Below the pieces are notes generated by a model. It ran no database searches. It saw only the letters and a list, made by a program, of their open reading frames with translations, and was not told where the DNA came from. From a virus, in IMG/VR virus record IMGVR_UViG_3300019487_000020, positions 1 to 64,000 of that record: a stretch of 64,000 bases of DNA. One strand, 5' to 3'. Positions 13,390 through 34,908 of this stretch are shown here, one piece after another. The number at the start of each line of letters is the position of its first letter. Within the stretch, counting starts at the first letter, position 1. The translations under genes were made by a program, and so were the position numbers.

Positions 13390-15927
13390 TTACCCAGCCG
13401 ACTGCTGGACCTGGGTGATTTCAATCGTGATCGGCACGAAGTAGATGCTGGTGCTCAGCTTAACTTCGACACTGACCGCCATCGTAGGCCCGTTGATCGT
13501 TACCTTGGCGTTCTTGAAGCCCAGCGGCGCGTCGTCGCTGGAGGTGATGACCTTCTGCTTCTTGTACTGGTCCATCTTGGACGCCAGGAAGCTCAGAGCC
13601 GTGTTGGCGCTGACGTCTGCCAGGCTTTGTCCCACGAACGCCCTCTGCATGGAGGCGCTGAGGTCGATAGCCAACAGGTCCGCCAGGTACACTGCCTGCA
13701 AGCTGTTGTACACGAAGTTCGTGTCGAAGCCGTAGGTGGTCTGGTCGCTGACCCACTTGGCTGCGCCGCTGTCCTTTTGCAGGATTAGCAAGCCTGCGTC
13801 AAGCGCGTCCTCGACGTCACCCGGGTTGCCAGAGTCAAATCCGGCTGGGTCCTCGAAGTCAACCACGTTGGCAAACTTGTTTGTGATGCCCTTGTAGAAG
13901 CCCGCGGCCTGCATGCCCGCTGCGATGGCTGCCGAGTGCCAAGGGAGGAAGCTGCGGACCACTCCGCCCGAGTCAACCTGGCTGGACTTCTGAGGACAGA
14001 AGTCGACGCGGAAGTTACCCAGTGCCTGAGCCTTGCTCTTGGCATCTGAGTAGGCGCCCCAGAAGGACAACATGGCGATGCGGTTCTTCTTGAGCTTCGG
14101 CGTAGACATCTTCAGACAGTGGCTCTTGGTGGCTGCGTGCACGGCGTCGATCGAGTAGGCGCTCGCGCTCTCCGTCAGGCCGTCGGCGATGTCGTCGGCT
14201 GCGTCTCGGGAGAACAGAGGAACCACGAAGTTGACGTCGATGCCCTCAAGCTGGGCAATGGCGTCCACGATGTCCGCTGCGCTGGTGGAACCCTTGGCTC
14301 CGCCGGCCAAGAAGGCTGGCGACGCCATAGGCGTTGGAAGGCCGTCTACGTCAGCGGCATCGAATTCGACTGCGCGAGACTGTGACACGGCCTTTTTCCA
14401 GTTGGCAAGAGACTTCTTGACTCGTCCGGGCTCGAGGCTTGCTGCCGTAGAGCAGATGCCGATTGCAGTTACCTTGTCCAGGTTCGTAGCCGGAGCCTGC
14501 TGGCCTGCGGCTGTGGCTTCTGCGCTGTATCCTGTCTTGGAAGCTAGGAACTCGGCAAGGTCCTTGACCGTGGCAAAGTCGCTGAGCTTGACGCCAGACA
14601 GCGACGCGCCGGTGCCACCTGCAACGGTGGTCGACAGGATGCCAGCCGCGCTTATGGACAACGTGGCGGACGTTCCTTGGTAGCCCACTTGAAGCGCTAC
14701 CTCGCCAGCCGCGTTGAGGGCCTCGTTAAGGCCGGTGTCGCTTCGGTTGACGTCAAGCTCTACTTCGCTCTCAGCATTGGAAACATAGAGGTCGGCGGCA
14801 AGCTCGATAGCAGCCAGGTCGCCGGGGGTTGAGTCGATAAGCTCGAAGGCTTTGCCCCATCCTTTTCGGTAGTTAGCTGCGTCCTCGTCGGCGAAGATGC
14901 GGATGGTGTCCGCAGCGGTGCCGGCTTCGCAGCTCAGTCCAGATGGAAGCTGGGCGTCGATCTCGGCTGCAAGCTCGGCCGCGGTGTCATGTTCGCTTTC
15001 GTCGGAGCTTAGGGTGATGACCGTGGCGGCTCCGCCGTTGTTTCGCACTGAGAACGACAGCCCGTTCAACGCCGTAGCGTCGAACAGCCCGCCCTGCGCG
15101 GTGATTGCGATGGAGAAGCCTGCTCCCACGTCGAAGTTGGCTGCGTCCTCCGCTTCGCCGTCTTGAGATGCGGTAACGCTGACAACGTTCAGCAGCACAG
15201 TGGCGGCGAACGTGGACAGTGCGTCAATGGCTAGCTGGGTTGCCAGCGCCACGTCGTCGGCGGTGTCGCCGGTGGTGATGTTGATCTGGACGCCTGTACG
15301 GCCGGCAGGGGCCGGGTCGGTTCCCACGCCGTCCTTCTTGTACCAGCCGTAGTACTTGATGCCGTTGTTGCCGGCCTGGAACGTGAAGTACTGCCCAGAG
15401 GTGATGGCAGCCGCTGCCGGAGTAGTGATGTCGAATTCCTCGGCGGTGGCTCCTGCGTTGGACAATGCTGCAATGGCGTCGGAGGTGATGGAAGGCCCGT
15501 CCTCGAGCTGCGAGGCCTTGATCTGGTACTTGATCTTGTTGCCGTCCGCCCCCCAGTTCTGGTCTTCCAAGGTGCCGTAGTCGGTGTCGATCAGCGCGCT
15601 GGCCTTGGTTCCCTGGTTGGTCTTGAGGATGTAGATCCTGTTGGCCGAGCCCTGGATGTTGGCGTCTGCGCTAGGGGCCGAAAGTGCGCGCATTGCGTCG
15701 ACGATTGGGCCGCGAATATAGGCTCGCGCCACTCGGTCCAGCTGGTCGGGCGTGAAGAAGTTGTCCTTCAGCACTTTCGTGTCGAAGCTTTCTCCGCCGT
15801 CGGCCTCGCCGACGATGACGATGTTGCCGCTAGACGCTACTCCGACCGGGGTGCTTTGCACCTTTACGTCGGGATACGCACCCGGGGTGTTTGTATTGAT
15901 GAAGCTTTCAGTTAGCCGCTGAGCCAT
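13390..15927 (-). CDS. contractile tail sheath protein
   Basis: 845 aa. The N-terminus TPGAYPDVKVQSTPVGVASSGNIVIVGEADGG resembles the sheath PGVY..GV.TS..A.VG signature. A large Ala/Thr-rich insertion lies in the middle. Confidence 0.75.
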   Translation of the reverse strand: MAQRLTESFINTNTPGAYPDVKVQSTPVGVASSGNIVIVGEADGGESFDTKVLKDNFFTPDQLDRVARAYIRGPIVDAMRALSAPSADANIQGSANRIYILKTNQGTKASALIDTDYGTLEDQNWGADGNKIKYQIKASQLEDGPSITSDAIAALSNAGATAEEFDITTPAAAAITSGQYFTFQAGNNGIKYYGWYKKDGVGTDPAPAGRTGVQINITTGDTADDVALATQLAIDALSTFAATVLLNVVSVTASQDGEAEDAANFDVGAGFSIAITAQGGLFDATALNGLSFSVRNNGGAATVITLSSDESEHDTAAELAAEIDAQLPSGLSCEAGTAADTIRIFADEDAANYRKGWGKAFELIDSTPGDLAAIELAADLYVSNAESEVELDVNRSDTGLNEALNAAGEVALQVGYQGTSATLSISAAGILSTTVAGGTGASLSGVKLSDFATVKDLAEFLASKTGYSAEATAAGQQAPATNLDKVTAIGICSTAASLEPGRVKKSLANWKKAVSQSRAVEFDAADVDGLPTPMASPAFLAGGAKGSTSAADIVDAIAQLEGIDVNFVVPLFSRDAADDIADGLTESASAYSIDAVHAATKSHCLKMSTPKLKKNRIAMLSFWGAYSDAKSKAQALGNFRVDFCPQKSSQVDSGGVVRSFLPWHSAAIAAGMQAAGFYKGITNKFANVVDFEDPAGFDSGNPGDVEDALDAGLLILQKDSGAAKWVSDQTTYGFDTNFVYNSLQAVYLADLLAIDLSASMQRAFVGQSLADVSANTALSFLASKMDQYKKQKVITSSDDAPLGFKNAKVTINGPTMAVSVEVKLSTSIYFVPITIEITQVQQSAG

Positions 15928-18258: not shown

Positions 18259-19023
18259 TTAAGATTGGTCCAAGTACTTGTCTAGGATTGAGGGCATGAT
18301 GTCCTTCTCCCAGACGTCCTCGGCCCACATGAGCGCTAGGTCCATGAGCTTGTCGCCCTGCCGGCCCGGGTGCATCCACCGGCCGTCCTGAATGTGCTTC
18401 TCGCTCACCATCCTGAAGGTCATTATGTCCCTGCGGATAATGCCCCTGGAGGTCATGCGCTGGGTTATGGTCAGGCCGCTCAGCGCCGGCGTGGTGGCCT
18501 TCTTGGTGGGTTTGGCGCTGTCCAGGTTCAGCCTGTGCAGCACGCCAAGCCTGGGATTGCCAGAAGCGTCCCGCTCTATGCCCTTGAACGGTATGCCTTC
18601 CTTTTTAAGCTCTCGCTTGAGCTGGGCAACGATCTCCTGGGCCTTGGCGGGCATCTGCGTGGGTGCCTTGCCGTGGTCGAACGGTATGGCCTTGTACTTG
18701 GTGCCGTCCTTCGCCATCTTGGCGTTCTTGCGCAGCAAGTCTTGGACCATACTTCCGCTCTTGCGGCCTTCCTCTATCCATAGCGCAGGCTCCCCCAGGG
18801 AGACCACCCACACTCCGGGCATCACCTCCTCGAAGGTCAGGTTGTCCGTGTACTGCTTGCGGGAACTCTTCAGCCTCTGCTGGGCCAGCTCGAGGGTCTT
18901 GGCGTGCGTCATCGAGGCAAGGCTTTTGACTCCCTCTTCCAGGGCTGCTTGGACCTGCTGCTTGACCTCGCCGAACTGCGCGGCAATGGCCTCTGCGTCG
19001 ATTTTGAGCTTTAGTGCGCTCAA
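18259..19023 (-). CDS. virion-module protein, function unknown
   Basis: TTG 19023 follows GGAGGT. Confidence 0.6.
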   Translation of the reverse strand: MSALKLKIDAEAIAAQFGEVKQQVQAALEEGVKSLASMTHAKTLELAQQRLKSSRKQYTDNLTFEEVMPGVWVVSLGEPALWIEEGRKSGSMVQDLLRKNAKMAKDGTKYKAIPFDHGKAPTQMPAKAQEIVAQLKRELKKEGIPFKGIERDASGNPRLGVLHRLNLDSAKPTKKATTPALSGLTITQRMTSRGIIRRDIMTFRMVSEKHIQDGRWMHPGRQGDKLMDLALMWAEDVWEKDIMPSILDKYLDQS

Positions 19024-19244
19024 GTGTTCCTACCTCCGAAAGCTACAGGGTCGCCGCCGCTGTCGAGGGCTGCGCCACGCTTCCTGTTTACCCACCTAGT
19101 GAGGCCAGTCTGGTTGTCGATCACCTTCTGCTCGCCGTAGTTGTTTATGGCGCCTTCCGGCTGCCTGGGCTTGGGCACGTGCTTAGTGGTCTCTTTGGCG
19201 GGTAGGCGCCCGATAGGTTCGCCGACCCGCCCTAGGCTTTTTTT
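19020..19244 (-). other. candidate -1 frameshift site and 72-codon extension of the 19232-20734 gene
   Basis: The slippery run is A7 (19238-19244, read as CCA AAA AAA). A 6-nt spacer and a 7-bp GC stem (19225-19231 / 19197-19203) follow. The -1 frame is open and GC3-rich down to TGA 19020-19022. Confidence 0.35.
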
Positions 19245-20734
19245 GGCGGGGCACCCTCCGCGTCATTGTATTGGGCTCCTGCCTGCGGCCCGTCCTGGTC
19301 TGCGACCTCGTCCCCGCTGGCCTGGCCAGCTGCAACGTCCTCGTCAGACACATCGCCTTCTGGAGGAGCCTCGGCCCCGCCACTTATGCCCATGGCCCTG
19401 GCCATAGCGACCATGGTCCTAAGCATCTTGATGCAGGAGGCATACAGCCCAGGGTTCTCCTGGCGGGTCTTCTCCACGAAGTCCCGGTTGGCCTTGAAGC
19501 CCTCGAGAGCCTCTCCGAGCATCTGCTTGATTTCATCGTGCCCGCCGTCGGCCGGAACGCCTGCCTGGTCTGCTGGGGGAGCCTCCTCGCCCTGCCCTGG
19601 AGCCGCTGCTTCGTCGTTCGAAGACTCCAGCGAATCCCTAAGCAACGAACCCATGGATGCCACGTTTTTGTCTTCAGGCTGCTCCTGGTCATCTTCGCCA
19701 TCTTCCTCCAGGCCCGTGCCTGCAGCCAAGTCTCTGTCGGTTAGGTTGTCCAGTATTGCGTCTGAGCCTTCGCCTTCTTCAGGCGGAAGATCATCAGAAT
19801 TTTCCTCAGGCGGAAGCTCGTACCCTTCTTCCCCTGGGGGAAGCTCGTCTGAGCCTTCTTCTGGGGAAAGCTCCTCACCGCCCTCATCCGGCAACATTTC
19901 ATCGGAGCCTTCTTCCGGTGGAGCTTCTTCTTGATCAGGCATTTCGGCATCGACGGCCGGCATTTCAGCATCTTGCTCTGGCAGTGCTTCACTGTCGTCG
20001 GACAGAGCTTCCTCGCCATCTTGTTCCGTCGGCATCTCCTCTTCAGCAGACTGAGCTTCTAGCGCCTCTTCTTCGCCGCCTTCTTCGCCGCCTTCTTCCG
20101 GGGAAGTAGCCTCTTCGCCTTCTGGCGCAGCCATTTCCTCAGGTTGCTCATCGCTGCCTTCATTCGGCTCATCGCCGCCCTCAGGCAGCTCAGTATTTTC
20201 TTCATCATTTGGTTCTCCCTCCTCGTCGGGCGGCAGTTCCCCGCTTTCCGATGCGGGAGCCTGCTCCTCGGCCGCTGGGGCCAAGTATGCTTCGTCTTGC
20301 TTACGTTCCTCGTATGTGGCGCCCTCGCCCATTGCGCGCGTATGTGCGTCCATCAGGAACTGGTCTGTTTCTGGGCTGTACTGTACAATTTGGTTCTTGC
20401 CGCTGAGCTTGCCTTGAATTAGGGCCTTGCCCGCTTCGCTGAGGGTGTTGCCGCAGCCGATGGTCATGTTGAAGCCGCTTTTGTTCTTGATGATCTGGCG
20501 AATCTTCTCCAGGTCCTGGTACTTGTCGGCCGGTATGCTGAAAGTTCCCTCGTCTCCGCCGGAGCTAATCCTGCGTCCGCCGACTGACATCACCCAGCTA
20601 AGCAGGTCTTGTATTCCGCCATCGATCTTAGCACTAACTTGGCTCAGAAGCTCTGGGTTGTCCCCTAAAACCGCGCGCCCTACCTGCTTGCCTGCGTCGT
20701 CCATGTCCGCCGCTATGAATAGTTTCTCGTTCAC
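19232..20734 (-). CDS. mCpol/GGDEF-like nucleotide cyclase (palm) domain protein with a roughly 300-aa acidic Pro/Glu/Asp repeat region
   Basis: The N-terminus reads FIAADMDDAGKQVG..RISSGGDEGTFSI..NMTIGCGNTLSEAGKALIQGKLSGKNQIV. This gives a metal-binding DxD, a GGDE motif and a ..AK..GKN-like tail, as in Cas10 palm, mCpol and GGDEF domains. Confidence 0.55.
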   Translation of the reverse strand: MNEKLFIAADMDDAGKQVGRAVLGDNPELLSQVSAKIDGGIQDLLSWVMSVGGRRISSGGDEGTFSIPADKYQDLEKIRQIIKNKSGFNMTIGCGNTLSEAGKALIQGKLSGKNQIVQYSPETDQFLMDAHTRAMGEGATYEERKQDEAYLAPAAEEQAPASESGELPPDEEGEPNDEENTELPEGGDEPNEGSDEQPEEMAAPEGEEATSPEEGGEEGGEEEALEAQSAEEEMPTEQDGEEALSDDSEALPEQDAEMPAVDAEMPDQEEAPPEEGSDEMLPDEGGEELSPEEGSDELPPGEEGYELPPEENSDDLPPEEGEGSDAILDNLTDRDLAAGTGLEEDGEDDQEQPEDKNVASMGSLLRDSLESSNDEAAAPGQGEEAPPADQAGVPADGGHDEIKQMLGEALEGFKANRDFVEKTRQENPGLYASCIKMLRTMVAMARAMGISGGAEAPPEGDVSDEDVAAGQASGDEVADQDGPQAGAQYNDAEGAPPKKA

Positions 20735-21618
20735 GATGAGTTCCTCCGTCTAAGCGCCTCTAACAGCATCTCTATGTTTTCAGGGTCCCATCCCTTGGAG
20801 AATCGAACCTGTACGCCCTTCTCGTGCTTCCTGACGAACACCTTGCGTTGCATGTCGTCCCCGTAGCATACGCACGCGCTGAAGGCGCCCTTTGCAAATA
20901 TGACCTTGCCGCAGTCCGGGCAGTCGGCGCTCTCGCCTTTGGCCATCTCGATCACAAACTCTCGCGGCTTGCTCTTTTTAAGCGCCCTGGTCCTAAGGAA
21001 CTGGCTAAGCGCCCTAGGCTTCCTGGCCTCGGCCGGCCTATCCTCCGGCTTGCCCTGGGCCTGCGCCGCCTCGCCCAGCCTGCGCAGCAGCATCATGCCC
21101 ACTGCCTCGCGCTGCTCCAGCTTTTTGGACACTACTTGGTCCACTAGTGCGTGCAGCGCCACTCGGTCGTCCACGAGCTTCTGCACCTTGGTTTCTAGAT
21201 CCTCGCCGGGTCCCCCGGGTGTGGTCTGCTCGAAAGAACGCTCTCCGTACATCTCGAACGCAGTCATTATGACCAGGCCCACGCTTGGCAGCGTGCGGTT
21301 TTTGAACTCAGCGACCTTCTTGCCCTCTTGATCGATCGTGCCCGAGTAGACGTCGGGGCCGAGCTTGTCTATGTGCATCATTGCTGGCCTGCCGTCCACC
21401 GGCAGCTCGGTGTCGAGGTGCTCGCCCTGCTTCATGGGCTCGAGCTTGTGGTACAGGAAGGACAGCACCGCCCTGGGCACTATCTGGAGCGCTGTTTTAA
21501 GCTCCTCGTGGTCCACCACCGTGTTGGTGCCTGGCTTGTAAAGCTCAAACTTGGCTAGCTCGGCCATGCCGCCTTCTCCGAGGGTCTTTCTGAGGAAGGT
21601 GTCAGCGTGACGGCTCAA
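20731..21618 (-). CDS. hypothetical protein with C-terminal Cys cluster
   Basis: TTG 21618 follows GGAG. The Cys cluster is CPDCGKV..ACVCYGDD. Confidence 0.6.
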   Translation of the reverse strand: MSRHADTFLRKTLGEGGMAELAKFELYKPGTNTVVDHEELKTALQIVPRAVLSFLYHKLEPMKQGEHLDTELPVDGRPAMMHIDKLGPDVYSGTIDQEGKKVAEFKNRTLPSVGLVIMTAFEMYGERSFEQTTPGGPGEDLETKVQKLVDDRVALHALVDQVVSKKLEQREAVGMMLLRRLGEAAQAQGKPEDRPAEARKPRALSQFLRTRALKKSKPREFVIEMAKGESADCPDCGKVIFAKGAFSACVCYGDDMQRKVFVRKHEKGVQVRFSKGWDPENIEMLLEALRRRNSS

Positions 21619-34230: not shown

Positions 34231-34908
34231 ATGAAAAAAATTAGAATGATCACTGTGGATGCCCAGGACGGGCTCGGAAAAACAACTTTAATTAACAACC
34301 TAAAGAAACTGTTCGCAAATCGCCCTATCCATTCTACCAGGCTTCTTGGTGGATCGGGGGAAGACGACTTCCAGCTTGCTTTGCGCAAAGTATTGCTGCA
34401 TCCTAAGTTTCCTATCAATTCTGTAGAGTTAGAGGAGCAGCTTTTTGCTCTAACGGACGTAGAGGGTATCAGAGAAGCAGGCAGGTTTTTGGCATCTACG
34501 CCTGGAGGAATAGTATTAAAAGATAGAGCCTTGGCCAGCCATGTCTGCTATGCGCTTGCCAAGTTTATGACCGTGCACCAGATCGAGCGTTGCCATGAGC
34601 AGGTTATCTACGAAGAGAAGAAGCTCAGCAAGGAGTATGGTTCTTTAAATATCATATTGGCCGCCACTGAGACTGATTTTGTTATAGACCGTATACGCAA
34701 GCGTGCGGCCTTGACTGGCGAGCCAATCGTGGAGCGTTTGGAAAATGAGCAAGTTCAGTGGTCAGTTATGAATGCAATGAGATCGTTTCCAGACCACGTG
34801 CTTGCGCAAGGGCTGGAGTACAGACTCTTGGAGGTCGCGCCCCAGGACTCCATACAAGACGTGTTTGCGAAGGCGAAGGCCATCCTAGACAACTACGAAA
34901 TCGGCTAG
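34231..34908 (+). CDS. thymidylate-kinase-family (d)NMP kinase
   Basis: ATG follows AGGAG. The P-loop is DAQDGLGKTT, KDRALASHVCYA matches the Tmk DR(Y/H) motif, and DRIRKRAAL is a LID-like segment. Confidence 0.6.
   Translation: MKKIRMITVDAQDGLGKTTLINNLKKLFANRPIHSTRLLGGSGEDDFQLALRKVLLHPKFPINSVELEEQLFALTDVEGIREAGRFLASTPGGIVLKDRALASHVCYALAKFMTVHQIERCHEQVIYEEKKLSKEYGSLNIILAATETDFVIDRIRKRAALTGEPIVERLENEQVQWSVMNAMRSFPDHVLAQGLEYRLLEVAPQDSIQDVFAKAKAILDNYEIG

Follow-up and report, generated by a model that had tools for sequence, protein, structure and literature searches.

Does the mCpol-like gene of an uncultivated phage end at its own stop codon, or do some ribosomes continue past it in another frame, up to the start of the next gene? 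The question is raised by a 64,000-nucleotide (nt) stretch of viral DNA (positions 1 to 64,000 of IMG/VR record IMGVR_UViG_3300019487_000020; hereafter the window). In it, a 500-amino-acid (aa) open reading frame (ORF) that begins with a minimal CRISPR polymerase (mCpol) domain ends in ...GGT GCC CCG CCA AAA AAA GCC TAG and is separated from the next gene by 208 nt. A first-pass annotation, made from the letters of the sequence, had proposed that a programmed -1 frameshift on the run of seven adenines (A7) in this ending lengthens the protein by 72 aa. Comparison with related loci supports that proposal, and we consider it very probable that one message yields 500-aa and 571-aa isoforms by programmed -1 ribosomal frameshifting. 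The frameshift mechanism itself is textbook; the gene family and its variants are new.

The elements of a frameshift cassette lie in close order at the 3' end of the ORF (Table 1). The A7 run stands where the first-pass annotation had placed it and reads in the zero frame as a perfect X_XXY_YYZ heptamer, A_AAA_AAA, with lysine codons in the P and A sites; homopolymers of at least seven A or T occur only seven times in the 64 kb of the window. Six nt downstream, past a spacer that includes the zero-frame TAG, begins the 7-bp GC stem that had also been reported. A Shine-Dalgarno (SD)-like GGAGG exactly 10 nt 5' of the heptamer, a probable 5' stimulator, and a short inner helix recovered by folding had not been noticed before. 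For the 53 nt from the spacer through the hairpin (19237..19185), the minimum free energy (MFE) is -26.4 kcal/mol, a stability (z = -3.49) that was not reached by any of 200 dinucleotide shuffles. The 3' arm of the hairpin also codes for LP(A/T)K, a motif conserved in the extension. A scan of positions 18900..19400 against Rfam gave no match, so the cassette is not a catalogued frameshift element.

Past the heptamer the -1 frame is open for 72 codons, beginning with AGC (19238..19236) and closing with TGA (19022..19020), and translates as SLGRVGEPIGRLPAKETTKHVPKPRQPEGAINNYGEQKVIDNQTGLTRWVNRKRGAALDSGGDPVAFGGRNT. The closing TGA overlaps the TTG start (19023) of the downstream 254-aa gene as TTGA, and the frame fills the 208-nt gap, as first described. 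The earlier figure of about 74% G or C at third codon positions (GC3) was reproduced (0.74, vs. 0.63 and 0.51 in the other two frames), and the earliest ATG, GTG or TTG in the frame is indeed the GTG at 19178. The accompanying remark that the GC3 bias already holds upstream of this GTG did not survive: the roughly 20 codons concerned do not discriminate between frames (0.70 vs. 0.74), and homology was used instead. The nearest upstream TGA in the -1 frame, previously put eight codons before the slip site, lies at 19265..19263, six codons ahead of the first shifted AAA.

The predicted trans-frame product would join 499 zero-frame residues to the 72 of the extension (571 aa), and the Glu-C peptide expected from it is GAPPKKSLGRVGE. 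The conserved GEPIGRLPAKETTKH of the window extension is positioned upstream of GTG 19178, and so are the codons for VGEPIGR and LPAK, which therefore lie outside the 52-aa ORF that begins at this GTG. The extension is basic and the linker upstream of it very acidic. An AlphaFold2 (AF2) model of the extension is a small four-strand beta domain with a predicted local distance difference test score (pLDDT) of 72. A PDB search with the model gave no structural neighbour (best E = 1.3), and the extension matched no Pfam family and no PHROG family.

One hundred related loci were gathered from viral and metagenome contigs with the 254-aa downstream gene as anchor, and their stop-to-stop segments were searched with a hidden Markov model (HMM) of the extension peptide. 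The extension domain was found in 78 loci, with E-values down to 1e-40. It lay in the -1 frame relative to the upstream long ORF in 51 loci (41 of them non-identical), was fused in frame in 13 and lay in the +1 frame in 3; in 11 the contig ends too early to tell. Every one of the 41 non-identical -1 loci carried an X_XXA_AAR heptamer in the zero frame within the short overlap of the 0 and -1 frames, namely CCCAAAG (21 loci), CCCAAAA (8), AAAAAAG (8), AAAAAAA (2, the window and L048) or GGGAAAG (2). For comparison, the related upstream ORFs have any in-frame XXXYYYZ at just 71 of their 17889 codon positions. The zero-frame stop followed the heptamer by 0 to 27 nt, with a single exception at 42 nt.

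The slip site is thus conserved as a function, not as a sequence. The first-pass annotation had looked to related phages for the A-run, the stem and the -1 ORF; the stem, the ORF and the slippery position were conserved, but the A-run itself was mostly replaced by other canonical heptamers. The only other locus with A_AAA_AAA, L048, falls outside the window's clade. On a neighbour-joining tree built from the anchor protein, whose identity among loci that keep the slip site goes down to 37-58%, the layout states were intermingled. Because the states are mixed in this way, the slip site has been retained over deep divergence.

Fused loci also bear on the site. Five distinct ones (L004, L033, L041, L059, and L093) retain an in-frame heptamer at the homologous place, with the first helix 0 to 8 nt past it, and in four of these (L004, L033, L059, and L093) the -1 frame stops after one codon. 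A shift in those four would make the short form, as in Escherichia coli dnaX. Polarity reversals are expected where shift efficiency is near 50% (PMC5009743). Because the mCpol-like family shows the reversals that the review ties to such efficiencies, it hints, by analogy, at substantial shift efficiency here.

The fused loci raise the possibility that the length of the A7 run was miscounted, or changed by a recent mutation, and that the true gene is a continuous in-frame fusion with eight adenines (A8). Homopolymers are error-prone and only one contig on record bears the window's exact sequence, but 41 independent, non-identical assemblies share the -1 layout, many with non-homopolymer heptamers such as CCCAAAG, so no sequencing error is needed to explain the window. 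The position of the zero-frame stop, one codon past the heptamer, likewise recurs in L001, L002, L011, and L066. An A8 version would itself present a slippery run followed by a -1-frame stop within two codons, the reversed arrangement of L004, L033, L059, and L093, and because such a site is dnaX-like, two isoforms would still be expected. We regard a continuous gene as highly unlikely.

With programmed frameshifting as the preferred reading, the extension should behave as coding sequence attached to the upstream protein. It aligned among relatives as a domain of about 65 aa with the pattern G.PIG.LP.K.TT.HV....P.GA.N..G..KVID..TG..R.ID.K, and its LP motif lay 10-11 codons past the slip site in nearly all loci. 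Differences between relatives were concentrated at codon position 3 of the -1 frame (e.g., 1208/1056/2368), and the -1 frame, judged from these substitutions, is protein-coding and under codon-level selection. In the fused loci (L004/5, L033, L038, L040-44, L059, L060, L085, and L093) the domain forms the in-frame C-terminus of a 440-700-aa mCpol-like protein. The fused junction ...APK/SKAPVGQPIGKLP... lines up with the ...PPKK/SLGRVGEPIGRLP... predicted for the trans-frame product, giving the same PK/S junction.

An exhaustive profile search of 1.84 billion representative proteins returned 91 matches to the extension domain. About two thirds were tiny ORFs; the remaining matches were long proteins, nearly all of which carry the domain at their very C-terminal end. 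The 72-aa peptide alone recovered only the window's own 52-aa call (P0001), and further homologues needed the profile; a profile of the N-terminus returned fragments only. Two proteins, P0168 (872 aa) and P0170 (889 aa), gave weak matches to the extension profile (E about 1e-4) in 3-4 repeated stretches, and their length is unlike that of the family. The small beta domain of the extension may exist as a repeat elsewhere.

The tiny ORFs are gene-caller products: the extension is given as a 'hypothetical protein' of 41-137 aa (P0001-P0081), in the window as the 52-aa call from GTG 19178. That a public protein collection holds this call and dozens like it from relatives is the argument for a separate small gene, and the first-pass annotation had said that relatives lacking the A-run and keeping a small gene with its own start would tell against a shift. 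Most relatives do lack the A-run, but they carry other slippery heptamers and no independently initiated small gene. GTG 19178, like most of the called starts, comes only after the conserved G.PIG.LP.K.TT.H. No ATG, GTG or TTG precedes the LP motif in the extension frame in 29 of the 41 loci, and in the remaining 12 no SD motif accompanies the start. Called starts are scattered over internal codons that are not homologous, or sit in the out-of-frame overlap, and the fused homologues place the domain with the upstream protein. A separate gene would also leave the conservation of heptamer, hairpin and SD-like motif unexplained, and we give it very little chance of being correct. The free-standing calls are a systematic mis-annotation across the clade of phages that resemble Myxococcus phage Mx1.

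The stimulatory elements expected of a ribosomal shift were found across the family. Among 39 distinct cassettes, the gap between the heptamer and the first helix of at least 4 bp measures 6 nt in 25 and 5 nt in 4. The 50 nt downstream of the heptamer had a mean MFE of -16.0 kcal/mol, compared with -8.9 for shuffles, -7.6 for other segments of the same loci and -11.1 for chimeras in which the 5' part of one locus was joined to the 3' part of another. The window hairpin is the most stable among the 39 cassettes. In a 26-sequence alignment, the helix formed by columns 14-23/48-57 was 77% paired, vs. at most 52% when the partner was slid, and it included compensatory pair changes (CG 15/UA 7; UA 9/CG 7; CG 10/UA 4/UG 4). 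Its covariation score was 0.299, vs. 0.175 for shuffles; none of 500 shuffles reached it and the slid controls were all lower. The end position of GGAG or GAGG peaked sharply 10 and 11 nt before the heptamer (15 and 8 loci). Such a motif was present within -18..-6 in 19 of 39 cassettes (binomial p = 1.8e-13), vs. a background of 6.1% of positions in the 600 nt of each ORF that come before, and about half of the family is without it.

These elements also bear on the level at which the frame changes. RNA polymerase could add one A at the A7/T7 run, since A-runs can support transcriptional slippage, as described for Thermus dnaX (PMC5009743); the window has A7 and eight relatives have A6G. The conserved 6-nt spacing of the hairpin and the SD-like motif at -10 are, however, ribosome-level stimulators. 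Moreover, in 31 of the 41 relatives the heptamer is CCCAAAG, CCCAAAA or GGGAAAG and contains no more than 3-4 A, and runs of that length are too short for polymerase slippage. It is very improbable that transcriptional slippage accounts for the frame change, and it may make a minor contribution in the window. The chance is negligible that the extension is a decaying, unexpressed remnant of a formerly fused C-terminal domain left by a frameshift mutation: fused versions do exist and may be ancestral in some branches, but in all 41 loci the -1 ORF is open and ends exactly at the next gene, conservation is seen in the protein (change being in excess at codon position 3) and in the slip signals, and the stops or indels that a dead ORF would gather were not seen in the extension frame of close relatives.

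Several points weigh against programmed frameshifting in the window. RNAalifold, run on a MAFFT alignment of 26 cassettes, predicted no pairs, a null that we think is due to 1-nt offsets in stem register and to variable loops. The covariation result rests on a helix that we specified ourselves, pair counting and per-sequence folding having replaced RNAalifold. The 3' arm of the hairpin usually covers the conserved LP(T/A)K codons, where RNA and protein constraints are superimposed, and because of this overlap part of the hairpin conservation is protein-driven. In E. coli, A_AAA_AAA is less shift-prone than A_AAA_AAG; we speculate that the strong hairpin of the window compensates for the less shift-prone heptamer. 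The window heptamer is also atypical for its clade, in which relatives carry C_CCA_AAR, and a miscount of the A7 homopolymer is possible in the window's single assembly.

In the mechanism that we propose, ribosomes on the mCpol-like mRNA would pause with tRNA-Lys on both AAA codons, because of the hairpin at the mRNA entrance and the pairing of the anti-SD sequence with GGAGG behind. A fraction of them would slip back by one base, both tRNAs re-pairing from AAA to AAA, and go on in the -1 frame. Ribosomes that do not slip would read GCC, terminate at TAG and release the 500-aa protein; those that slip would append the 72-aa basic, beta-rich domain and finish the 571-aa protein at the start of the next gene. 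The outcome would be two isoforms in a set ratio, both with the mCpol palm, the acidic linker and the helical C-terminal segment and one with the extra domain. We speculate that the extension tethers or targets the protein during assembly, because the gene lies in a virion-gene block upstream of the tail sheath.

A further clade of relatives appears to use a different shift. Six distinct loci (L032, L045, L078, L102/103, L104, and L105) have the extension in the +1 (= -2) frame and lack any X_XXY_YYZ heptamer. Five of the six share NCC CCA CAG NNN TAA, and right after the stop, 6 nt past CAG, comes a hairpin whose energy lies between -13 and -23 kcal/mol; in L102/103 the stop comes five codons past CAG, without a comparable hairpin (-5.5 kcal/mol). 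A tandem -2 slip from CCA CAG to CCC CAC would keep five of six base pairs, and it would put the KL(S/P) motif at the distance seen in the -1 loci, where a +1 shift would bring it one residue closer. The pattern is suggestive of a tandem -2 shift on CC_CCA_CAG rather than a +1 shift in this clade. The Atkins 2016 review (PMC5009743) lists phage Mu as an example of -2 shifting. The -2/+1 clade described here accounts for many database ORFs that have 'PHS.KP' at the N-terminus.

Table 1. Positions of the frameshift cassette, the mCpol-like gene and its neighbours in the window, and of variant slip sites in related loci.
Feature	Positions	Strand	Remarks
Zero-frame ORF, mCpol-like	19232..20734	minus	500 aa, GTG start, TAG stop 19234..19232; from the ORF list; putative short isoform
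mCpol palm domain, N-terminal	20378..20719	minus	residues 6-119; D-x-D and GGDE motifs
Shine-Dalgarno-like GGAGG	19259..19255	minus	probable 5' stimulator
Slippery heptamer A_AAA_AAA	19244..19238	minus	zero frame
Spacer GCCTAG	19237..19232	minus	6 nt
3' hairpin	19197..19231	minus	outer stem GGCGGGU 19231..19225 / ACCCGCC 19203..19197
Inner stem GGCG/CGCC	19223..19220 / 19208..19205	minus	from folding
-1-frame extension	19020..19238	minus	72 codons (SLGR...GRNT) and TGA; with residues 1-499, putative long isoform
52-aa gene-caller ORF (P0001)	19020-19178	minus	GTG start
Downstream neighbour	18259..19023	minus	254 aa, TTG start; phrog_16819 (function not assigned)
Upstream neighbour	20731-21618	minus	295 aa, conserved; homologues in L001-L005
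Fused locus, candidate reversed site	L004:3752-3810		C_CCA_AAG GTC TAA; fold -19.7 vs. shuffles -8.7; GGAGG 12 nt upstream
Fused locus, candidate reversed site	L033:3776-3830		A_AAA_AAG GGA TGA; fold -16.8 vs. shuffles -13.8, not well below
Fused locus, candidate reversed site	L059:3747-3800		A_AAA_AAG GTC TGA; fold -19.8 vs. shuffles -8.7
Fused locus, candidate reversed site	L093:1806-1860		C_CCA_AAA AGG TGA; fold -18.5 vs. shuffles -9.0; GGAGG 12 nt upstream
Fused locus, heptamer kept in frame	L041:3765-3820		fold -17.3 vs. shuffles -5.8
Candidate +1/-2 site	L032:3760-3860		
Candidate +1/-2 site	L045:3750-3850		
Candidate +1/-2 site	L078:720-830		
Candidate +1/-2 site	L102:2520-2620		
Candidate +1/-2 site	L104:2400-2500		
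Candidate +1/-2 site	L105:1490-1590		

The closest known counterpart of the window cassette is laid out in E. coli dnaX as an SD-like element, a heptamer, a 6-nt spacer and a stem-loop. The window is alike in its SD-like motif about 10 nt upstream, its X_XXA_AAR heptamer for tRNA-Lys, its 6-nt spacer and its simple stem-loop, and in the two isoforms, predicted here and known as tau and gamma for dnaX, that differ by a C-terminal domain. The site thus presents the canonical elements of a putative dnaX-type -1 shift: heptamer, structure, SD-like element, initiation-less coding ORF and fused homologues. The stem-loop, the SD-like stimulator and the A_AAA_AAG site of E. coli dnaX are discussed in the Atkins 2016 review (PMC5009743), and both shift polarities occur in dnaX across bacteria (PMC5009743), as they appear to in the mCpol-like family. 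The proteins are, however, unrelated and the mCpol-like gene resides in a phage genome. The dnaX shift shortens its product, whereas that of the window would lengthen it, and the heptamer is A_AAA_AAG in E. coli but A_AAA_AAA in the window.

Two phage systems also invite comparison. In gene 10A/10B of phage T7, a -1 shift in the capsid gene gives a minor longer isoform. The resemblance lies in the placing of the shift, a few codons ahead of the stop in a gene of the virion module, and in a short C-terminal extension; the protein and the signal are different. The tail assembly chaperone genes of phages, such as lambda G/GT, shift by -1, -2 or +1 (PMC5009743), and the mCpol-like family appears to have the same spread of shift types. 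Unlike G/GT, the mCpol-like gene is upstream of the sheath and not between tail tube and tape measure, its product has an mCpol palm at the N-terminus and no sequence similarity to G/GT, and it matched no tail-chaperone family in Pfam or PHROGs. The heptamer G_GGA_AAG, which we take to be that of lambda, is present in L076 and L082.

The identity of the mCpol-like protein is clearest at its N-terminus. Pfam PF18182 matched it with E = 3.4e-10 and 40.8 bits (cutoff 26.4) over model positions 1-114 of 114, and a profile of ten family members aligned end to end with solved mCpol structures (9nwn_B, 4.9e-18; 9mnr_A, Panoptes OptS, 1.5e-17). The NCBIfam model NF033576 scored 35.4, under its cutoff of 40. 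Residues D10, D12 and G59-G60-D61 were invariant across the alignment of mCpol-like proteins (alignment A4). By an approximate pattern scan, 23 of the 33 family proteins with a detected N-terminal region have the D-x-D context and 29 have GGD(E/Q); the misses are partly pattern gaps, not motif loss (e.g., L001). The motifs are presumably catalytic, a role that we assign from general knowledge of GGDEF and Cas10 palm domains. The family profile and the palm motifs place the phage protein in the mCpol family, with cyclic oligonucleotide synthesis as its putative activity. The remainder of the protein consists of an acidic low-complexity linker of about 250 aa and a conserved helical C-terminal segment, and homologous ORFs occupy the equivalent position in L001-L003.

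The genomic setting is a block of virion genes. An 845-aa gene product (13390..15927) shares 43% identity with the protein annotated as tail sheath in Myxococcus phage Mx1, a virion structural PHROG is present among the genes neighbouring the mCpol-like gene, and the mCpol-like gene itself lies upstream of the sheath gene within this virion-gene block. Searches of the neighbours with Pfam, PHROGs, NCBIfam and PADLOC yielded almost no further annotation. Among 50,697 phage records, Mx1 was the only isolate with a good-coverage homologue of the mCpol-like gene or its neighbour: the 254-aa neighbour matched only in Mx1 and, weakly, in Bacillus phage SP-10, and Mx1 gave the sole match to the mCpol domain. 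In the same records, blastn with 3.5 kb around the slip site and tblastn with the trans-frame C-terminus found no match, and no precedent annotated as 'ribosomal slippage' was found among those searched. Because of the sheath identity and of Mx1's place as the sole isolate with good-coverage homologues, the window, which belongs to a contig of about 155 kb, is assigned to an uncultivated contractile-tailed phage related to Mx1.

The Mx1 homologue itself (L101:4583-5989, OR576727.2) is a single long ORF annotated as hypothetical. Its mCpol domain no longer has either the D-x-D or the GGDE motif, which suggests a non-enzymatic role there. At the protein level no frameshift site was evident in it (its DNA was not scanned), and its C-terminus resembles the extension by eye only, with no alignment or score. 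With the catalytic motifs gone from the Mx1 homologue, the role that is conserved in the mCpol-like protein may be structural or in assembly, instead of or besides enzymatic.

Bacterial mCpol proteins were shown in 2025 to make decoy cyclic nucleotides in Panoptes defence (PMC12657218, PMC12657230). The phage protein is like the Panoptes mCpol (OptS) in that its N-terminal 120 aa align end to end with the solved structures and in that D-x-D and GGD(E/Q) are kept in most family members. It is unlike OptS in being phage-encoded within a virion-gene block and in its fusion to the acidic linker and helical segment. No 2TM-beta, CARF-TM effector or defence family was recognised among its neighbours with Pfam, NCBIfam or PADLOC, the last a weak negative as its 2023 version is of doubtful Panoptes coverage. 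Nor was the pairing of an mCpol with an effector in a bacterial defence locus, by which Panoptes loci are recognised, seen among these neighbours, which are virion-module genes. We know of no Panoptes gene that is recoded, and the Panoptes papers searched make no mention of a frameshift or of a phage-borne mCpol. Nor did a literature search find a paper on a phage-encoded mCpol or on a frameshift in an mCpol-like gene.

A more ambitious reading, which we consider unlikely, would make the phage mCpol-like family a recoding switchboard built around a need for two isoforms of a probably active mCpol synthase. The isoforms would come from a lengthening -1 shift in the window and 40 other loci, from a truncating -1 shift in L004, L033, L059, and L093, and from a probable tandem -2 shift in L032, L045, L078, L102, L104, and L105. 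The enzyme could also be a counter-measure or signalling device, e.g., supplying a cyclic nucleotide that silences a Panoptes-type effector, and the basic extension would decide whether it is tethered or packaged or stays free.

Recognising the shift has a practical consequence for annotation, in that gene finders split the mCpol-like gene across large uncultivated Mx1-like phages and a correct proteome depends on joining its parts. The roughly 40 diverged natural cassettes, including role-reversed and apparent -2 forms, allow the evolution of frameshift signals, and their tuning, to be studied by comparison. For phage biology, an mCpol among virion genes with its catalytic motifs intact is a setting for which we found no earlier report.

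Other features of the window were observed alongside. The stop of the 295-aa upstream neighbour overlaps the start of the mCpol-like gene; this neighbour has a C-terminal CPDCGK...C.C zinc-ribbon-like motif and matches no known family. Upstream of the virion-gene block, a 2081-aa ORF (25232-31477, minus strand) has several GNAT domain matches (Pfam Acetyltransf_1, E = 1.5e-24, in three stretches), and a giant multi-GNAT protein of this kind is unusual for a phage. Two paralogous GIY-YIG/homing-endonuclease-like genes (31339-32142 and 33390-34418, both minus strand; phrog_314, E about 1e-42) lie on either side of a tail-fibre-like gene (32158-33129; phrog_772).

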